Source: Promethearchaeota archaeon
Lineage (GTDB): Archaea; Asgardarchaeota; Lokiarchaeia; Sigyniarchaeales; SOKP01
Length of the DNA: 12,702 nucleotides
Direction of reading: 5' to 3'
Assembly (NCBI GenBank): GCA_016839765.1
Contig: JAEOTP010000092.1
Span: forward strand, 1-12,702
Below, one piece after another: positions 1-11,754 of this stretch. The position numbers and the translations under genes were made by a program. Position 1 is the stretch's first letter. Each line of letters opens with the position of its first letter. The notes beneath the pieces are model-generated. The model had not been told where the DNA came from, made no database searches, and saw nothing but the letters and a program-made list of their open reading frames with translations.

Positions 1-661
1 ATTCAGATAAATGTCTTGAAGTTTTGGATCTTTCTGCTCTAAATGTTGGCCCCATATTATAAATTTTCCCTAGTGAAAAGATACCTGCCTCAGCGTACAA
101 TTGCCATGTTTGGCTTAGATAGATTTTGTCTTCAAAATATTTAACTTCAAATAAAGTAGCACCACCTTCGGATTGGGTAGGTTGGAATATTGGTGCATCA
201 AATTCATAATAACCATGACTCCTAAAAAATTCATGAATCGCTCCAACGACAGTATGCCTTATTTTTAAAACTGCGTTCAATTTCCTTGATCTTAGCCATA
301 GATGTCTGTTATCGTATAAAAGCTCAGGAGATTGATGTTCCGTAATTGGAAAAGGTTCTGCAATCTGTATAATTTCCAAATCAGATACAGAAACTTCATA
401 ACCAGTAGGAGCCCTTTCATCCTCCTTTAATTTACCTGAAACTTTAACTGAGGATTCAATCGTTAATTTCTCAGCTTTTTCAAACGCTTCTGGATTTTTA
501 CTTTTAGAAATAACACATTGTATTATATCAGATTCATCCCTTAAAACTATAAATACAAACTTATTTGACTTCCTTTCTCGATATACCCAACCTCTTAAAT
601 TTATTTCACCAGAGCCTTTTTTCAGAGCTTCTTCAATTGTTAAATATTTTGATTCCTTCAT
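1..661 (-). CDS. asnS: Asparagine--tRNA ligase, N-terminal 220 codons; continues beyond the left edge of the window
   Basis: Not in the ORF track; translated by hand from ATG at 661-659: MKESKYLTIEEALKKGSGEINLRGWVYRERKSNKFVFIVLRD... (OB-fold anticodon domain), DERAPTGYEV, NRHLWLRS, EGGATLFEVKYF, YLSQTWQLYAEA, and class II motif 2 GPTFRAERSKTSRHLSE. RHLWLR and FRAE..KT.RHL favour AsnRS over AspRS. Confidence 0.93.
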   Translation of the reverse strand, partial: MKESKYLTIEEALKKGSGEINLRGWVYRERKSNKFVFIVLRDESDIIQCVISKSKNPEAFEKAEKLTIESSVKVSGKLKEDERAPTGYEVSVSDLEIIQIAEPFPITEHQSPELLYDNRHLWLRSRKLNAVLKIRHTVVGAIHEFFRSHGYYEFDAPIFQPTQSEGGATLFEVKYFEDKIYLSQTWQLYAEAGIFSLGKIYNMGPTFRAERSKTSRHLSE

Positions 662-814: not shown

Positions 815-1363
815 CTATAATATAAAAATCGCTGCAGCTACAACTGAAGCCCACTCATCTTCATCTCGAACAGTTGCAGATGCTGTAATGTTCTTAGTCT
901 CTACAATTTTCCCTCCCATTTTAAAAACTTCTCGTTTTTCGTCATAGTTAGCATTAGGGTCAAATTCTATTCCTAAAGTAGTAGCTAACATTTCAGCGGC
1001 TAGATCTTCAGCAGTATCTCCTGTTTTTTCTGGTTTAACGCCAAAAGTATGATGTTCACTTAAATATCCATATTGATTTTTATCCGCAGGTTTTGCAACA
1101 CCAATTGAAGCACAAATTAAACGATTATATTCATTAGAATCTACTCTAGCGATAACAGCAAATACAACCTGCCCTGATCGAAGTTGTTTTAGACCATCCT
1201 CTTTGTTTATTTCGATACAATATGGTGGTAAGATAGAAGATACATTAACTAAATTATATTTTTCAATACCAGCATCTCTAAGTGCTTGTTCGAATGCTGC
1301 TAATTTGGATTTATGAAATCCTTTACCTTTTACAAAAAATACCTTCTTTGGGACAAGTGACAT
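815..1363 (-). CDS. pdaD: Pyruvoyl-dependent arginine decarboxylase (produces agmatine)
   Basis: 182 aa with AFEQALRDAGIEKYNLVNVSSILPP, containing the Ser-Ser self-cleavage site, plus YGYLSEH (catalytic Glu), AEDLAAEMLATT and C-terminal VVAAAIF, all typical of the PvlArgDC family. Confidence 0.92.
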   Translation of the reverse strand: MSLVPKKVFFVKGKGFHKSKLAAFEQALRDAGIEKYNLVNVSSILPPYCIEINKEDGLKQLRSGQVVFAVIARVDSNEYNRLICASIGVAKPADKNQYGYLSEHHTFGVKPEKTGDTAEDLAAEMLATTLGIEFDPNANYDEKREVFKMGGKIVETKNITASATVRDEDEWASVVAAAIFIL

Positions 1364-1714
1364 CTCTTAACTTAGGTGTATATAATCTTTATTTATTATA
1401 ATAATAGTAAATACTAAACTTATTTAAACTTAATCAAAATATATTAATAATCTAAAATTATGAAGGAGTAGAAACTAATTTTTCTACTGGATTTCTAAAA
1501 TATCCTGAGAAATATTATAAATCGGCATTTAAGTTTAAGATTTTTAAGGTTAAATCAATAGGTTGAAATATGTGGTTTAAATACGTTATTAGAAAAATCT
1601 TAGCCAATATTTTTTTTTTATAATAGCACTTATTATCAATTAATTAAATCCTATCTAATTTTTGAAATGACAATTTAGTTTTATTTAAAAAATTTAAAGC
1701 ATTTAACTTAATCT
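1364..1714. promoter_or_regulatory. Divergent promoter region between pdaD and DHS paralog 1
   Basis: 351-bp very AT-rich gap between head-to-head genes. TATA-like TTTAAAAA at 1684-1691 lies about 24-31 nt before the ATG at 1715; inverted repeat at 1467-1488. Confidence 0.5.
1467..1488. repeat. Perfect 8-bp inverted repeat AGTAGAAA-N6-TTTCTACT
   Basis: AGTAGAAA (1467-1474), spacer CTAATT, TTTCTACT (1481-1488), read directly from the sequence. Function unknown. Confidence 0.6.
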
Positions 1715-2704
1715 ATGAATAAAAATCATAAAGAAAAGTACCTCATTAAAAAAATATCTCCATTTAATGTCTACAAAGTTAAAAATATCGATGATCTGTT
1801 AAGAAATTTAAAGAAATGTGGATTTCAAGGAAGAAACCTAGGAAAAGCTCTTGATATATTATATAAAATGGTTACTGACCATAAAATCTTAACTGTCTTA
1901 ACTCTTTCAGGAGCAATGATTCCAGCGGGTATGGGTGATATAATATGTGCTTTGATTGAAAATAAACTAATTGATGTCATAGTAAGTACTGGAGCCAATA
2001 CTATTCATGATTTAGTCGATGCTGTTTCAGATATTGGGCATTACATAGGAAGCCCAAATGTTGATGATAATGAGTTATTTAAAGCCCGAATTAACAGAAT
2101 TTATGACACCTTTTTACCAGAGGATAACTATAAACGTGCTGAAAACGTTTTATTGGATATTGTCCATGAAAGCTTTAGCTCAAAAGACATAAATATAACG
2201 CCTTCAGACCTAATGAAAAAAGTAGGAGAAAAAGTAAATGAAAGATGCATTCTTTCTATTGCAGCTAAATATAATATTCCTATATTTGTACCTGCGTTTT
2301 CTGATTCTGAATTTGCATTGAATTTAATAAAATATTCTGTAAGAGAAGGGTATAAGTTTAATTTAGACATATTTGGCGATGTCCTTATATTTGCGAATAT
2401 TATAAGAAAATCAGATGAGTTTGGAACTTTCATTATCGGAGGGGGTGTTCCACGAAATTGGGCTCAACAAATATTTCCATTATTGGATCAAATAGATAAC
2501 ATTGAATCTATGGGTTATAATTACTCAGTCAGAATTACTAGTGCGGTAGAATATGATGGTGGATTATCAGGGTGTACAATAAGTGAAAGTAAATCATGGG
2601 GAAAGTATTCTTTAGAATCTAAATATATCACTGTATGGTGCGATGCAACTATTGCTTTACCAATATTGATTACTGGCTTATTTCAACGTTTAAATATCAT
2701 TTAG
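1715..2704 (+). CDS. Deoxyhypusine synthase family protein, paralog 1 (NAD-dependent aminobutyl transferase-like)
   Basis: GFQGRNLG, LSGAMIPAGM, STGAN..HD, RINRIYD, FVPAFSDS, GGGVPRNWAQQ, DGGLSGCTISESKSWGK (catalytic Lys297 at 2603-2605), CDATIALP. Confidence 0.92.
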   Translation: MNKNHKEKYLIKKISPFNVYKVKNIDDLLRNLKKCGFQGRNLGKALDILYKMVTDHKILTVLTLSGAMIPAGMGDIICALIENKLIDVIVSTGANTIHDLVDAVSDIGHYIGSPNVDDNELFKARINRIYDTFLPEDNYKRAENVLLDIVHESFSSKDINITPSDLMKKVGEKVNERCILSIAAKYNIPIFVPAFSDSEFALNLIKYSVREGYKFNLDIFGDVLIFANIIRKSDEFGTFIIGGGVPRNWAQQIFPLLDQIDNIESMGYNYSVRITSAVEYDGGLSGCTISESKSWGKYSLESKYITVWCDATIALPILITGLFQRLNII

Positions 2705-2756
2705 TTTATAAAAAATAGTACAATAATTTTAAAATGGCTACTTTATTACATCTATT

Positions 2757-3758
2757 ATGCTTAACTCTCGAAAAGAAGATTATCTTATTAGAAAAATCTC
2801 TCCTTTTGATATCAATATTATTAAAAACGTTGATGATGTTTTAAAATCATTGAAACTCTGTGGTTTCCAAGGTAGAAATTTAGGTATAGCTGCTGATATT
2901 CTATATGAAATGTTCAAAGATGAAAGTTGTTTAACCATTCTAACCTTAAGTGGAGCAATGATCCCAGCTGGAATGGGATATTTAATATGTGAATTAATCG
3001 AAAACAAATTAATTGATGTCATTATCTCAACAGGGGCTAACATTACTCACGACTTTATTGATAGCATTTTGAATGGGGGTCATTACCAAGGAAGTGAGGA
3101 TCTAGATGATGAAGATTTATTTAAACATCGAATAAATAGGATATATGATGTTTTTCTTCCTGAAGATAACTATGATACCGCAGAAAAAGAATTACTTAAA
3201 ATCTTATTAAGTAAATTTCCTAATAAAAAATTTGAAATTACTCCATCAGAATTCTTTAAAATTATTGGAAAGGAAATAAAAAACAGAAGTATTTTATCTA
3301 GTGCAGCTAATAATGAAATTTCAATATTTGTTCCAGCTATTTCTGATTCTGAATTTGCACTAGACTTAATAAAATTCACGGATACTGAAGGATTTGATAT
3401 CGATTTTCGAGTACTTAAAGATGTCAAGAATTTTGCTGAAATTGTTAAGAAATCAGATTCTTGTGGAACCTTTATTATCGGAGGGGGCGTTCCGAGAAAT
3501 TGGGCTCAGCAAATTTATCCTTATATTGAAAATGTTGAAAGATTAACCAGAGCGAATTATGAATTTGGTTATAAATACGCTGTAAGAATTCACACCGCAA
3601 CAGAGAAAGATGGCGGTTTAAGCGGGTGTACCTTAAGTGAAAATAAATCTTGGGGTAAATACGCTATGGATGCTAAATATATAAGCGTATGGTGCGATGC
3701 TACTATTGCCTTACCAATATTAATTACGGGAGTTCTACAAAGATTAGAAATAATCTAG
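2757..3758 (+). CDS. Deoxyhypusine synthase family protein, paralog 2
   Basis: Same motif set as paralog 1, with DGGLSGCTLSENKSWGK (Lys301 at 3657-3659). About 60% amino-acid identity to paralog 1 by hand alignment, colinear apart from a 4-aa indel. Confidence 0.92.
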   Translation: MLNSRKEDYLIRKISPFDINIIKNVDDVLKSLKLCGFQGRNLGIAADILYEMFKDESCLTILTLSGAMIPAGMGYLICELIENKLIDVIISTGANITHDFIDSILNGGHYQGSEDLDDEDLFKHRINRIYDVFLPEDNYDTAEKELLKILLSKFPNKKFEITPSEFFKIIGKEIKNRSILSSAANNEISIFVPAISDSEFALDLIKFTDTEGFDIDFRVLKDVKNFAEIVKKSDSCGTFIIGGGVPRNWAQQIYPYIENVERLTRANYEFGYKYAVRIHTATEKDGGLSGCTLSENKSWGKYAMDAKYISVWCDATIALPILITGVLQRLEII

Positions 3759-3803: not shown

Positions 3804-4589
3804 TTATGAATCTTCTTTTTTCCTAAGGAGATATTTTGAGAAAATATTCATATAAAGACATTCTTCAGGAGGCATTTCCATTGTTAGTTTTGGTTTTTCT
3901 GTAAATTCCACATCTGTTCCTCGAATGATTACGACAGGCGTTTGTTTGTCTGCTTCACTTAATAGGAACTGAGCAGCACTCGCAAGATCATCAGCTATAG
4001 CCCTCATGGTTATTTCTAAAGGTCTATTAAATAGATCTGGTTTACCTCGTAAATCCTCGATGGGTTCAAATCCCACAGTTGCTATTGCAATCCCAATTGT
4101 ACCTTTTCTAAGGGGTTGAACACGAGAATCTGCTATAATAATCCCTAGATTATTTAATTTGAACTCTTTTCTTAGAGTCTTCCAAAACTTCCAGATTACT
4201 TCATCAAGATTTTTTGGAAGAAGGACTACTTTACCACCTCCCGCATTAGATTGGTCTATTCCTGCATTTGCAATTAGAAAATCATTTACTTTAGTCAAAA
4301 TTACGTGTTTCATTCCTCCCAAAACCATGGAAGCTTCATCTAAAATCAGTTTAACGTATCGTTCATCCATATTATATTGTCTTGCTAAATCTTTTGCTTG
4401 ATTTGAGATATTTTTTACTTCGGATAGTTTTTTAACTCTTCCTTGGGATGTTGCAACTACTTTTTCAGCAATTACTATAATATCTCCTTCATTTAAAGAA
4501 CCTATTGTCTTTCTAATATTTGTAATGATGATTTTGAGTAAATCATCATTTTCTTTTATAAGTGGAAGTTTAATTTCAAATAACTCCAT
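3804..4589 (-). CDS. CofE-family gamma-glutamyl ligase (F420-0:glutamate ligase fold); possible alternative folate/pteroate glutamate ligase
   Basis: LPLIKENDDL, GDIIVIAEKVVATSQGR, ANAGIDQSN, IIADSRVQPLRKG, DLRGKPDLFNRPLEIT, ADDLASAA and TPVVIIRG are CofE-family motifs. Substrate is uncertain. Confidence 0.88.
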   Translation of the reverse strand: MELFEIKLPLIKENDDLLKIIITNIRKTIGSLNEGDIIVIAEKVVATSQGRVKKLSEVKNISNQAKDLARQYNMDERYVKLILDEASMVLGGMKHVILTKVNDFLIANAGIDQSNAGGGKVVLLPKNLDEVIWKFWKTLRKEFKLNNLGIIIADSRVQPLRKGTIGIAIATVGFEPIEDLRGKPDLFNRPLEITMRAIADDLASAAQFLLSEADKQTPVVIIRGTDVEFTEKPKLTMEMPPEECLYMNIFSKYLLRKKEDS

Positions 4590-4645
4590 CGTAGATTAAA
4601 AAAATTAAACTTATTTGATATAGTTTTTTACACTTCTAGATATAT
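4590..4645. promoter_or_regulatory. Compact bidirectional promoter region for cofE-like and folP
   Basis: Only 56 bp separate the divergent ATGs; central AT-rich core AAACTTATTTGATATAGTTTTTT; no SD on either side. Confidence 0.5.
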
Positions 4646-5509
4646 ATGAAAAAAATTTATGCAAAATTCTTTGATTCTTTAGAAATTGGTGATGAGTTCC
4701 CTACGGTTATAATGGGAGTATTAAATTTAAGCCCTGAATCTTTCTACAAAGGTTCTGTGTATAATGATCTTAGTCAGATGAAAAATGCTGCTTTAGAGAT
4801 GGTTAATAATGGAGCAAATATTTTAGATTTAGGTGCTAGATCAACGGCTCCATGGTCTAGAAAAATTAAAATTGAAGAAGAAATTAGTAGATTCACACCT
4901 GCTATGGAAAAGTTATGTGAAGTAATGCCTGAAAATGTAATCATCTCAGTTGATACCCAATTTAGCCAAGTAGCCCAAAAAGCTTATAAAATTTCAAAAA
5001 AGTATGATAGAAAAATAGTAATCAATGATGTAAGCTGCTTAAAAACCGATCCTATGTTAGCGGATTTCATAATTGAAAACAATCTTCCCATTATTATAAT
5101 GGCTTCAAAAAAATTTCCAGGGGATTTATTAACTATAGAAGAGATCATTAAGGAATTTAAATTTACTATTAATAATTTGGTACAAAAGGGCTATGATGAG
5201 ACCAAAATAATTTTAGATCCGGGTATAGGGCATTGGATTGAAGAAAAAACACATATATATGATTTAAAGATAATTAACAACCTATCCAAATTAAGAACTT
5301 TAAATAAACCAATATTGGTGGCAATATCAAGAAAATCCTTTATTGGTACAACCTTGAATAAACCAGATCCAAAGCATCGCTTAAATGGTACTTTATCTGC
5401 TACAAGCATAGCTGTTTTTAATGGTGCCCATGTAGTCCGCACTCACGATGTTAATGAACAATTATTAGAAATAGTTAGAATGGCAAGAGAAATAAGGATC
5501 AATTATTAG
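4646..5509 (+). CDS. folP: Dihydropteroate synthase (archaeal-type motif variants)
   Basis: IMGVLNLSPESFY, LDLGARSTAP, ISVDT, INDVS, ILDPGIG, ISRKSFIG (pterin-binding Lys) and VRTHDV fit the DHPS TIM barrel. Confidence 0.93.
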   Translation: MKKIYAKFFDSLEIGDEFPTVIMGVLNLSPESFYKGSVYNDLSQMKNAALEMVNNGANILDLGARSTAPWSRKIKIEEEISRFTPAMEKLCEVMPENVIISVDTQFSQVAQKAYKISKKYDRKIVINDVSCLKTDPMLADFIIENNLPIIIMASKKFPGDLLTIEEIIKEFKFTINNLVQKGYDETKIILDPGIGHWIEEKTHIYDLKIINNLSKLRTLNKPILVAISRKSFIGTTLNKPDPKHRLNGTLSATSIAVFNGAHVVRTHDVNEQLLEIVRMAREIRINY

Positions 5510-5851: not shown

Positions 5852-7879
<2,028 letters not shown>

Positions 7880-7927
7880 TTCTAACTTATTTAATTATAA
7901 TAATTTAAATTTGAAAAGGTGCCATAA

Positions 7928-10366
7928 TTGACTTCAGAACAGATTGAAGAGATTTTATTAAAAGAGGAAATGAAAAGTAGTTATATCGATTATGCTATGA
8001 GCGTGGTCGTTGGACGTGCAATCCCGGATGTCAGGGATGGCTTGAAGCCGGTTCATAGGCGTATTATTTACGCAATGGCGACAAACAATTGGTATTATAC
8101 AAGTTCTCATGTTAAATGCGCTAAAATTGTGGGTGAAACACTAGGAAATTATCATCCTCATGGTGATATGGCTGTGTATAATGCTTTAGTGAGAATGGGA
8201 CAAGATTTCTCATTAAGATATCCTTTAATCCATCCACAGGGGAATTTTGGGTCTATTGATGGAGATCCACCAGCTGCTTATAGGTATACTGAAGCGAGAT
8301 TATCACTGATATCAAATGAGTTAATTGAAGATATAGATAAAGAGACTGTGGAGTTTCAACCTAATTTTGATAATAGTATTTCTGAACCAACATATTTACC
8401 CGCAAAGCTTCCTAATATGTTATTAAATGGTACTAAAGGAATTGCCGTAGGAATGGCAACCTCTATGCCACCTCATAATTTAAGAGAGGTTTGTAATGGA
8501 ATAATAGCAACTATTAATGATCCTGAAATTTCTATAGAAGAATTAATGGAAATCATAAAGGGTCCTGATTTTCCAACAAGTGGAATTATTACTGATACAA
8601 ATGGTATCTATAATGCATATACTACTGGAATGGGAACGATAAATATTAGTGGAAAGGTGGAGACTGAAACGAAAGGAAATAAAACTAGCTTAATAATTAC
8701 AGAAATTCCTTACTTAGTTAATAAGACAGACCTGATTGAATCTATAGCTAGACTAATTAAAGAAGGAGTCCTTAAAGATGTTAGAGATTTGCGTGATGAA
8801 TCCGATAGAAAAGGTATGCGCATTGTTTTGGATTTATCTAAAAATGCTCAACCAGCTATCATAAAAAATATCCTTTTTAAAAGAACTAGACTTTTAACGA
8901 CTTTTAACACAACTAACCTAGTTTTAATTAATGAGGGAAAACAACCAAAAATTCTCAATTTAAAAGAGATTATTAATGAATACATTGAACATCGTTTAAT
9001 TATCATTTATAAAAGAACCGAATATCTTCTTAAGAAAGCAAAAGATCGCCTTCATAGAGTAGAAGGGCTTTTAATTGCATTAAACGATATAGATAATGTT
9101 ATAAATATAATTAAAAATTCGAAGGATACTAATGAAGCAAAAGGAAAGTTAAAAACAACTTATACGTTAAGTGATATTCAAGTTCAATCAATATTGAGTA
9201 TGCCATTATCACGATTAACGAATTTAGAACAACAAAAGTTAGTTGATGAACAAAAATCACTACAATCCAGTATTAAGGAATATAATAAAATTCTAAAAGA
9301 AAGGGAAATCCGTTTAGACATAATTAAAAACGATTTAATTGAATTAGAGAAGAAATATGGAGATGATAGAAAGACTGAAATTAAAATGGTTGAACATCAC
9401 CAACTAAAAGAAATTGAAAGGAAAGATTTGATAAAAAAAGAACCAACAATTGTCATTTTTACTAAAAATCAATATATTAAACGAATCTCACTAGAAGAAT
9501 ATCAAGCTCAAAGACGGGGAGGTCGTGGAAAAAAAGGTATGACCGTACGCGAAGAAGATTTTATTACCGATTTATTTGTAGGCTCTACCCATGATACAAT
9601 TTTAATATTTACATCAAAGGGTAGAGTATATTCTATTAAATGTTATGATATTCCTTTACAAAAGAGAACAGCTAGGGGTAAACCGATTATAAATTTAATT
9701 CCTTTACAAGAGGGAGAAAAGATAGCTGATATGATTCCTATAAATAATTTCAATACAAATGAAATGTTAATAATGACGACTAAAAATGGAATTATCAAAA
9801 AGACACCTTTAAAAGATTTTTCTAAATTTAGAACTACAGGTGTTAAAGCTCAGAGGATCCGTGCGGATGATGAATTAGTAAGCGTTAAAAGGCTTTCAAA
9901 TGAATTACAAGATATATTTATAGCCACAAAATTAGGTTATGCTGTTAGATTTGATGAATCAGAATTACGAGAGTTAGGGAAATATTCGATGGGAGTTAAA
10001 GGAGCGGAATTAAGAGAAGATGATAAAGTTATTGATACTCTTTTAGTAACTAATGATGAAATTATTCTAACCTTGACCGAAAATGCCTACGGTCAAAGAA
10101 CACCAGTTAAAGAGTATCGAAAAACTGGTAGAGGGGCCAAAGGAGTAAAAAATATCACACTAGATCATTCTAAAAATGATCGGGTTATTGCAATCAAAAT
10201 AGCTAAGCATATGGACATTTTAATCGGAACAGAACAAGGGCAAATGATAAGGGTTCCTGTAGATTCTATTCGGATTACCCATAGGAAGGCAAAAGGAGTT
10301 AGAGTAATAAAGCTATATGAAGGAGATTCTGTAGTCGCTATTGGGAAATGTGAAAAGGAACATTAG
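7928..10366 (+). CDS. gyrA: DNA gyrase subunit A
   Basis: TTG start with SD-like AGGTG upstream; DYAMSV, PDVRDGLKPVHRR, YHPHGD, catalytic AAYRYTEAR, GPDFPT; GyrA-box QRRGGRG at 9509-9529; C-terminal beta-pinwheel repeats. Confidence 0.97.
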   Translation: MTSEQIEEILLKEEMKSSYIDYAMSVVVGRAIPDVRDGLKPVHRRIIYAMATNNWYYTSSHVKCAKIVGETLGNYHPHGDMAVYNALVRMGQDFSLRYPLIHPQGNFGSIDGDPPAAYRYTEARLSLISNELIEDIDKETVEFQPNFDNSISEPTYLPAKLPNMLLNGTKGIAVGMATSMPPHNLREVCNGIIATINDPEISIEELMEIIKGPDFPTSGIITDTNGIYNAYTTGMGTINISGKVETETKGNKTSLIITEIPYLVNKTDLIESIARLIKEGVLKDVRDLRDESDRKGMRIVLDLSKNAQPAIIKNILFKRTRLLTTFNTTNLVLINEGKQPKILNLKEIINEYIEHRLIIIYKRTEYLLKKAKDRLHRVEGLLIALNDIDNVINIIKNSKDTNEAKGKLKTTYTLSDIQVQSILSMPLSRLTNLEQQKLVDEQKSLQSSIKEYNKILKEREIRLDIIKNDLIELEKKYGDDRKTEIKMVEHHQLKEIERKDLIKKEPTIVIFTKNQYIKRISLEEYQAQRRGGRGKKGMTVREEDFITDLFVGSTHDTILIFTSKGRVYSIKCYDIPLQKRTARGKPIINLIPLQEGEKIADMIPINNFNTNEMLIMTTKNGIIKKTPLKDFSKFRTTGVKAQRIRADDELVSVKRLSNELQDIFIATKLGYAVRFDESELRELGKYSMGVKGAELREDDKVIDTLLVTNDEIILTLTENAYGQRTPVKEYRKTGRGAKGVKNITLDHSKNDRVIAIKIAKHMDILIGTEQGQMIRVPVDSIRITHRKAKGVRVIKLYEGDSVVAIGKCEKEH

Positions 10367-10824: not shown

Positions 10825-11754
10825 ATGAGTACTGAATTTAATATTGGTTTTGATTATTCACATAAGAATAAATTTGTAATTGAAGATCCAGCTTTTAACG
10901 ATTTTGTTGAGTTTCTTTTTAATTCTGACCTTAAATTGGGAAAGATTGAGGGAGGTATAACATATCAAAAACTATCAAAATATAATATTTTTATAATTGG
11001 TGTGCCTATTGCTCAATCTTTCTTGAGTAATGAGGAAATTGAGGACTTGGTAGGCTATGTTAAGGATGGAGGCTCTTTATTAATCTTAAATGACAAGGGT
11101 GGAGATTTGGCAAATAAAAATAATCTTTCTGATTTAACAAAGTATTTTGGAGTTAAATTCAATTCAGATCAATTATTTGATAATGAATCTTTTTCGAAAG
11201 ATAATTCTCGTCCAATTATCAAAAAGTTTAAACCACATTTTCTTACTCGTGATATTACCCAAATTATCCATTCTAATGGTTGTACTCTGGAAGTTATTAA
11301 AGAAATTGATGACAAGGACCTAGATGTTATCACGATAGCTTTTTCCTCTGAGGACTCTGCCTGGCATAAAACCTTTACTGGAGAGGAATGGTTTGATGAA
11401 CCTGTTCAGAAAACTCCTATTATTACTGCTGCACATTATGGGCTTGGTAAAGTTGTAGTATTAGGAAATTTATCCCTCTTTTCAAGCTTCCATGACGCTT
11501 ATGGTATCCATGCAGCAGACAATTTTAAACTAATCTCAAATATTATTTCATGGCTTATGAATAAAGCTTATTCAGAACAAGCTCAATTAACCCAGCCAAT
11601 TTATACTACAATTCCAATTGAACAAGATGTATATTATTGGATTAAAGGAAAGATTGATGAAGGAAGATGGAAAAACATTGAAGAAGTTATTAATTTTGCA
11701 TTAAAAGTTGTAAAATTTAGAATGAGAAAACAAGAAAACATAGAAGAGGAATAA
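10825..11754 (+). CDS. GIFT/GATase-like (IFT52-N/GldG/DUF4350-type) domain protein with a C-terminal ribbon-helix-helix-like domain
   Basis: IGFDYSH start, ITYQKLSKYNIFIIGVP, EEIEDLVGYVKDGGSLLIL..KGG, LTKYFGVKFNSD, GCTL, GLGKVVVLGNLSLFS and DNFKLISNIISWL fit the GIFT pattern. The tail YTTIPIEQDVYYWIKGKIDEGRWKNIEEVINFALK fits a CopG/ParD-type RHH pattern. No signal peptide or transmembrane segment visible. The gene itself is secure; the domain calls are by eye. Confidence 0.7.
   Translation: MSTEFNIGFDYSHKNKFVIEDPAFNDFVEFLFNSDLKLGKIEGGITYQKLSKYNIFIIGVPIAQSFLSNEEIEDLVGYVKDGGSLLILNDKGGDLANKNNLSDLTKYFGVKFNSDQLFDNESFSKDNSRPIIKKFKPHFLTRDITQIIHSNGCTLEVIKEIDDKDLDVITIAFSSEDSAWHKTFTGEEWFDEPVQKTPIITAAHYGLGKVVVLGNLSLFSSFHDAYGIHAADNFKLISNIISWLMNKAYSEQAQLTQPIYTTIPIEQDVYYWIKGKIDEGRWKNIEEVINFALKVVKFRMRKQENIEEE

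Follow-up and report, generated by a model that had tools for sequence, protein, structure and literature searches.

Which reaction is served by an arginine decarboxylase gene that stands head-to-head with two genes of the deoxyhypusine synthase (DHS) family? The question is raised by a 12.7 kb stretch of DNA with a G+C content of about 30% (hereafter the window), which belongs to the metagenome-assembled genome (MAG) of a lokiarchaeial Asgard archaeon (3.32 Mb in 96 contigs, completeness about 96%; G000 in our sample). In this stretch pdaD, encoding a pyruvoyl-dependent arginine decarboxylase, diverges from a tandem pair of genes that we name DHS2A and DHS2B. Close relatives of the source genome are all MAGs, labelled Promethearchaeota or Promethearchaeia (corresponding to Lokiarchaeia, Asgard archaea). 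A first-pass annotation had proposed that the locus channels agmatine directly into DHS-like chemistry, ending either in guanidino-polyamines or in the modification of a protein. Our analysis gives better support to the guanidino-polyamine option and makes protein modification by the window pair unlikely, given a separate and effectively universal DHS, named DHS1. The most fitting view of the pair is that of a duplicated, SpeY-like polyamine enzyme in an archaeon.

That DHS homologues can couple two agmatine molecules was first demonstrated for Thermus (PMC10981699, 2024) and then for diverse bacteria (PMC13625781, 2026). These enzymes, SpeY or CdmS, convert two agmatines into N1,N9-bis(guanidino)homospermidine (G44G), from which a SpeB-type ureohydrolase produces homospermidine (PMC10981699; PMC13625781). 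A cluster of pyruvoyl-dependent arginine decarboxylase, SpeB and SpeY has been validated in Caldilinea aerophila (PMC13625781). The pathway that the first-pass annotation held to be uncharacterised would thus be new only for archaea, its general form being already published: the underlying chemistry is known from bacteria (2024-2026), and the novelty lies in the lineage and in the presence of both branches of the DHS family in one Asgard genome.

The pdaD gene and its divergent DHS-family pair

The locus consists of the following features.

815-1363, minus strand: PdaD, pyruvoyl-dependent arginine decarboxylase of 182 aa, which makes agmatine
1364-1714, no strand: divergent spacer between pdaD and DHS2A, 351 bp, A/T-rich
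1715-2704, plus strand: DHS2A (P0001), SpeY-like DHS-family protein of 329 aa, predicted NAD-dependent agmatine-coupling enzyme
2757-3758, plus strand: DHS2B (P0002), second SpeY-like DHS-family protein, 333 aa

The description of pdaD as head-to-head with two intact DHS-family genes is borne out by open reading frames at these positions, full-length profile matches and preserved catalytic columns. PdaD matches PF01862 over its full length (194.9 bits) and exceeds the cut-off of TIGR00286 (135.3 bits against 106.95). A single match in the whole genome makes it the sole copy. Its VSSI motif (residues 41-44) contains the pair Ser42-Ser43, which we take to be the self-cleavage site by analogy with the M. 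jannaschii enzyme. Both DHS2 proteins cover positions 1-286 of the 288 of PF01916 with scores above the gathering score (297.9 bits for DHS2A and 297.4 bits for DHS2B), and solved DHS structures, PDB 6DFT among them, match the window proteins at E values of 1e-26 to 1e-33. The two co-directional genes are separated by 52 nt and their products share 61% identity. The SWGK catalytic lysine, the equivalents of Glu323 and Trp327 and the GGGVP motif are kept in both; in DHS2A the catalytic columns are K297 (human Lys329), E291 (Glu323) and W295 (Trp327), and the same columns are filled in DHS2B. Values of dN/dS of 0.07-0.16 against orthologues indicate purifying selection on both copies. Neither protein reaches any of the NCBIfam equivalog cut-offs.

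Synteny between pdaD and the DHS2 genes is widespread. Among 80 related loci from species-representative genomes, pdaD adjoins a DHS-family gene in 74, divergently in 72 and co-directionally, directly upstream, in the two most distant (L116 and L117; 50-53% identity). In five of the six loci lacking an adjacent pdaD, less than 700 bp of sequence is available upstream, and the genes further out (asparaginyl-tRNA synthetase, or AsnRS, CofE, dihydropteroate synthase, or DHPS, and GyrB) are common to closer relatives only and otherwise vary; the head-to-head arrangement is therefore not a matter of chance. One MAG (isolate bin60) carries two unlinked DHS2 genes, one beside pdaD (L102) and one without it despite 6 kb of upstream flank (L099).

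DHS2A and DHS2B represent two old sub-lineages of one Loki-specific paralogue clade. Most genomes of the order have a single DHS2, many of them carrying the A type or the B type only, and with few exceptions this gene stands beside pdaD. Since such single genes exist, nearly always next to pdaD, each type can be expected to work alone.

The spacer contains two TATA-like boxes. One, TTATTTAAAC, occupies 1420-1429 and is 57-66 nt away from the start of pdaD; the other, TTTATTTAAAAAATTTAAAGC, occupies 1680-1700 and precedes the ATG of DHS2A by 15-35 nt. In an alignment of 12 orthologous spacers both boxes are conserved separately and the middle of the spacer is conserved in close relatives only; the boxes may be archaeal promoters. 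A riboswitch or shared regulatory element was considered for the 351-bp spacer and rejected, as an Rfam search matched no family and conservation is limited to the two boxes. A sigma-70 promoter scan of the spacer stayed at the level of shuffled sequence; the sigma-70 model is not applicable to archaea.

DHS1, the active-site pocket and the missing spermidine route

A third gene of the family, DHS1 (P0003; 35-37% identity to DHS2A and DHS2B), lies apart from the window on another contig (C67), in a tight argS-agmatinase(speB)-dhs operon; this trio was noted earlier in Lokiarchaeota by Manoharan et al. (PMC6737245). Apart from the agmatinase of this operon, the genome contains no arginase-family gene. 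The gene for aIF5A (contig C22:24727-25155) is likewise single, and its product keeps the SGKHGHAK loop. As the first-pass annotation had stated, no agmatinase or spermidine synthase is found among the profile matches of the window proteins. When the rest of the genome is included, a separate canonical-clade DHS and the sole agmatinase are present, and speE was not found.

Indeed, in this nearly complete genome we found no S-adenosylmethionine decarboxylase (AdoMetDC), no real match to spermidine synthase (SpeE; a single hit of 21.5 bits), no relatives of the SpeE, BpsA-like and BpsA-AdoMetDC proteins of a sister genome, and no agmatine deiminase. Because AdoMetDC, SpeE and BpsA-like genes were not found, no spermidine route is visible. 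The genome encodes two decarboxylases of the alanine-racemase fold, LysA and one other. The second, LysA-like enzyme (C91:17116-18336, or L141:1120-2340, minus strand) scores 165 bits against a lysA cut-off of 298 and adjoins a GT4 glycosyltransferase and FtsZ; it could conceivably act as an ornithine or arginine decarboxylase. Elsewhere in the order, one protein of genome G008 (contig C40, L139:2630-4063) fuses a BpsA-like domain (branched-chain polyamine synthase C-terminal) to an AdoMetDC domain and may be a self-contained aminopropyl-transfer enzyme. Similar frames of about 475-500 aa occur in many genomes of the order, and the AdoMetDC matches lie in frames of about 480 aa, mostly without SpeE.

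A DHS2-type gene is present in about 112 of 151 genomes of the order and was not found in about 39 (about 26%), whereas DHS1-type matches are near-universal, including in the genomes without DHS2. At the corresponding locus of G008, AsnRS, PdaD, CofE and DHPS follow each other and the DHS-family genes are cleanly absent. The apparent presence of DHS2 alone in a few genomes was considered as a sign that it replaces DHS1, and rejected, since the cases examined are assembly artefacts: in G007 and G238 the essential argS is missing too, and in G236 and G247 a contig ends inside dhs1 or speB. One genome of the same genus (G211, about 99% complete) gave no DHS-family match at E <= 1e-30 with DHS2A as query; either both loci fall in assembly gaps or the family is absent. 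A survey of 151 Asgard genomes at E <= 1e-60 located DHS2 in the Loki order only, with three marginal matches outside it. As DHS1 is of the canonical clade and effectively universal and DHS2 is missing from roughly a quarter of relatives, the window pair is unlikely to modify aIF5A, and the most likely modifier is the separate, agmatinase-linked DHS1.

The substrate pocket was compared by way of Phe204 and Leu286 of CdmS, the two pocket differences from Asp243 and Asp316 of human DHS (PMC10981699). Columns were mapped from that paper and from the human sequence, checked against the numbering of Lys329, Trp327, Glu323 and His288. The columns of human Asp243, His288 and Asp316 are Leu/Asn/Leu in DHS2A (L202/N248/L284), DHS2B and DHS1 alike, and Phe/Asn/Leu in SpeY relatives; retention of His288 is limited to a small subclade, to which HVO_B0182 of Haloferax belongs. 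The window proteins thus depart from the spermidine-binding and catalytic set Asp243/His288/Asp316 of eukaryote-type DHS. All three lokiarchaeial enzymes look built for a donor other than spermidine, which fits the missing spermidine pathway. Since these columns are identical, the pocket was discarded as a means of telling DHS1 from DHS2.

Family phylogeny and the proposed agmatine pathway

Trees were built from representatives clustered at 50% that are nearest to DHS2A, together with plasmid-derived named outgroups (SpeY-type genes of Trichormus and Sphingomonas, and HVO_B0182). The family splits in two; this branch has an SH-aLRT support of 97 in a quick tree and a support of 96/91 in a more careful one. 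The canonical side contains DHS1, HVO_B0182 and proteins that pass the archaeal DHS equivalogs NF002630 and TIGR00321, as well as one just under the cut-off of NF003052. On the other side lie DHS2, cyanobacterial and alphaproteobacterial SpeY relatives and a mixture of bacterial and archaeal homologues (Planctomycetota, Desulfohalobiaceae, Bathyarchaeia, Hydrothermarchaeaceae and Desulfurococcales). The 96/91 branch separates DHS2 from the canonical archaeal clade in this tree free of eukaryotic sequences, and a clade uniting DHS1 with DHS2, a group named after the tree had been seen, is rejected (delta lnL 156.8, p-AU 3e-8).

DHS2 and its nearest clade have the derived motifs GGGVPRNWAQQ and SDSE[FL]AL in common. 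Wherever taxonomy or context is known, this nearest clade is bacterial: it includes a Desulfohalobiaceae cluster, and a sigma-54 activator stands beside one locus. A metagenome scan with the clade returned 80 loci, 19 of which encode a pyruvoyl PdaD 49-58% identical to that of the window, and 24 of which contain an arginase-family gene no more than 6 kb away. Compact pdaD-speB-DHS operons (L147 and L160) are among them, and these clusters have, by analogy with the characterised systems, the architecture of the agmatine-dependent homospermidine pathway. A recurrent layout in this sample (L164, L166, L170, L172, L175, L177, L178, L180, L198, L203 and others) comprises the DHS homologue, a thioredoxin/DsbA-like protein, an open reading frame of 90 aa with no Pfam match, an aldehyde dehydrogenase, PdaD and an arginase-family gene; loci of this kind are probably bacterial.

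The reading that we favour with moderate confidence, in which every substrate and product is predicted from the computed gene identities, linkage, distribution, phylogeny and pocket residues, is the following. PdaD would convert arginine into agmatine. DHS2A and DHS2B, acting like SpeY/CdmS with NAD and the conserved active-site lysine, would each oxidise one agmatine and hold its 4-guanidinobutyl group as an enzyme imine; transfer of this group to another agmatine, at the primary amine, would yield G44G. The single agmatinase of the argS-speB-dhs1 operon would strip two urea groups from G44G, and the resulting homospermidine would be the triamine of a cell in which AdoMetDC, spermidine synthase and the carboxyspermidine route are lacking. 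aIF5A would be modified by DHS1 and the agmatinase, probably from agmatine as proposed for Haloferax, and the window genes would take no part in this. We favour this reading because of the linkage of pdaD to DHS2, the placement of DHS2 on the SpeY side of the tree, the association of its nearest clade with pdaD and speB, the dispensability of DHS2, the lack of spermidine genes and the pocket columns.

Several observations weigh against this reading. Archaea require pdaD in any case, for the agmatidine of tRNA-Ile, so that its adjacency to DHS2 is weaker evidence here than in bacteria. DHS2 lies outside the clade of the included SpeY relatives and shares with them only a side of the tree, and the trees were built without the validated Thermus and Caldilinea enzymes, human or other eukaryotic DHS and Haloferax HVO_2297. 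The SpeY equivalogs are not passed (206 and 201 bits for NF002699, with a cut-off of 500; 213 and 191 bits for NF001980, with a cut-off of 450). The pocket is uninformative on the acceptor, because the columns of DHS1 and DHS2 are identical. No ureohydrolase gene adjoins DHS2, the sole arginase-family gene being in the dhs1 operon, and according to Li et al. SpeY functions poorly alongside a canonical agmatinase (PMC13625781). Finally, an expected complementarity between DHS2 and SpeE failed. Among an initial 41 genomes, only two had SpeE-like genes, and both lacked DHS2; in the set of 151, six or seven of the ten SpeE-positive genomes also carry DHS2, and the complementarity was rejected as a coincidence of small samples.

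Among the alternatives, the one that survives best keeps agmatine as the donor of DHS2A and DHS2B and changes the acceptor to putrescine, cadaverine, G44G, homospermidine or another amine, giving guanidino-polyamines other than G44G; the two copies may even differ in acceptor, e.g., one starting and the other extending a chain. We regard this as rather unlikely, although several features agree with it. With its sister clade, DHS2 forms a subfamily of its own, marked by Arg in place of Lys287, Trp in place of His289 and the SDSE[FL]AL motif, which stays under all equivalog cut-offs, and the two copies are both held by purifying selection in spite of their divergence. Tandem pairs also occur somewhat more often where an AdoMetDC homologue is lacking (present in 5 of 16 tandem-DHS2 genomes against 77 of 151 overall), but the trend is weak, and shared ancestry confounds it. 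Moreover, A-only and B-only genomes exist with the single gene mostly beside pdaD, and all bacterial SpeY homologues so far tested make G44G (PMC13625781). For these reasons the same trend, read as a link between tandem DHS2 genes and the absence of the BpsA_C-AdoMetDC fusion, was not used: it is weak and reflects ancestry as well.

A tentative extension of the favoured pathway, for which we would claim little confidence, is that both lokiarchaeial branches of the family share the agmatine-donor half-reaction and differ in the acceptor alone, with DHS2A and DHS2B perhaps split by acceptor for longer aminobutyl or guanidino polyamines. An aIF5A lysine as acceptor of DHS1 and a second agmatine as acceptor of DHS2 would explain why the pockets are identical.

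That DHS2A and DHS2B modify aIF5A from agmatine, by guanidinobutyl transfer completed by the agmatinase, and thereby serve beside DHS1 as a second hypusination enzyme or as one for particular conditions, appears improbable. The identical pocket columns of DHS1 and DHS2, the target loop kept in aIF5A, the proposal of agmatine as donor in Haloferax (PMC5178350) and the occurrence of proteins from the DHS2 half of the tree in several archaeal lineages are all compatible with such a role. They are outweighed by the quarter or so of related genomes that have DHS1 without DHS2, by the reduction of apparent DHS2-only genomes to assembly gaps, by the single aIF5A gene and by the restriction of DHS2, within Asgard archaea, to the Loki order. 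The nearest relatives of DHS2, furthermore, include bacteria, which are not known to have aIF5A, and lie in pdaD-speB clusters. It is very improbable that the pair forms an obligate hetero-tetramer with one subunit activating its partner, on the model of trypanosomatid DHS: the genes are tandem, co-directional and close, and the active sites of the tetrameric DHS enzymes lie where subunits meet, but every catalytic column checked is intact in both copies and the prevalence of a single DHS2 of either type leaves no obligatory co-occurrence.

Neighbouring genes and comparison with known systems

The remainder of the window contains the following features.

2-661, minus strand: AsnRS, truncated
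3804-4589, minus strand: CofE-family ligase
4646-5509, plus strand: DHPS
5867-10366, downstream of DHPS: GyrB and GyrA, followed by a cupin and further genes

The CofE-family gamma-glutamyl ligase scores just above the F420 cofE cut-off and weakly matches a model of putative folate gamma-glutamate ligase. It diverges from DHPS across a 56-nt spacer (pair at 3804-5509), and the pair is kept in relatives, which suggests that the ligase serves the glutamylation of pterins or folates rather than the F420 pathway. GyrB and GyrA give strong full-length profile matches and constitute a bacterial-type DNA gyrase in an Asgard genome; the Toprim region of GyrB, with 131 residues for a model of 96 positions, may contain an insertion. 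A 309-aa protein (10825-11754) modestly matches the IFT52 GIFT domain at 40 bits, with weaker, sub-threshold matches to DUF4350 and an ABC-transport auxiliary domain.

Lokiarchaeia are close archaeal relatives of eukaryotes. The locus offers a concrete Asgard test case, with an agmatinase-linked DHS1, a pdaD-linked SpeY-like pair, no spermidine pathway and three non-spermidine pockets; these three proteins, one agmatinase and one aIF5A would suffice to address how this lineage makes hypusine and triamines without spermidine. Homospermidine or its guanidino precursor is predicted to be the main polyamine of many Lokiarchaeia. The question with which Li et al. closed their paper is whether agmatine-dependent and spermidine-dependent DHS proteins both occur in archaea, and bacterial SpeY and eukaryotic DHS are both thought to derive from archaea (JBC 2026, PMC13625781). 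If the agmatine half-reaction were indeed shared, an agmatine-dependent DHS would exist in archaea, DHS1 and the agmatinase would build deoxyhypusine without spermidine, and the spermidine dependence of hypusination would be a derived trait.

Of the known systems, bacterial SpeY/CdmS is similar in linking a DHS-family enzyme to an agmatine-producing decarboxylase of the pyruvoyl fold, in having the catalytic lysine together with a hydrophobic residue, Leu and Asn at the Asp243, Asp316 and His288 positions, in its genomic setting without a spermidine pathway and in its half of the family tree. It differs in that the lokiarchaeial host is an archaeon that also has aIF5A and a canonical-clade DHS, and in that the lokiarchaeial cluster lacks a ureohydrolase, the lone one being elsewhere and shared with DHS1. 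Moreover, DHS2 is a tandem duplicate of a separate subfamily (with an Arg-Asn-Trp signature), well under the SpeY equivalog cut-offs.

The model for aIF5A modification in Haloferax volcanii combines the DHS HVO_2297, the agmatinase-like HVO_2299 and aIF5A, and this species has a second family member, HVO_B0182 (PMC5178350). The two archaea resemble each other in lacking spermidine and in having two kinds of DHS-family protein, one clustered with an agmatinase and with agmatine as the proposed donor, and the lokiarchaeial argS-speB-dhs1 operon matches this agmatinase-linked picture. The window genes, in contrast, are not the agmatinase-linked copy, and the lokiarchaeial aIF5A lies outside the operon. 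HVO_B0182 is not the counterpart of DHS2, because it belongs to the His288-retaining subclade on the canonical side of the tree.

Canonical DHS (EC 2.5.1.46; PDB 1RLZ, 6XXJ, 7CMC and 8PUT) shares with DHS2 the fold, the family and equivalents of the lysine, Glu323 and Trp327. In DHS2, however, Asp243, His288 and Asp316 are replaced; it stands phylogenetically apart from the canonical archaeal clade, is dispensable in relatives and occurs in a genome with no source of spermidine. The heteromeric DHS of Trypanosoma brucei (a catalytic subunit and a regulatory paralogue; PDB 6DFT) likewise involves two paralogues in one genome, but the lokiarchaeial copies are both catalytically intact and each is found alone in other genomes.

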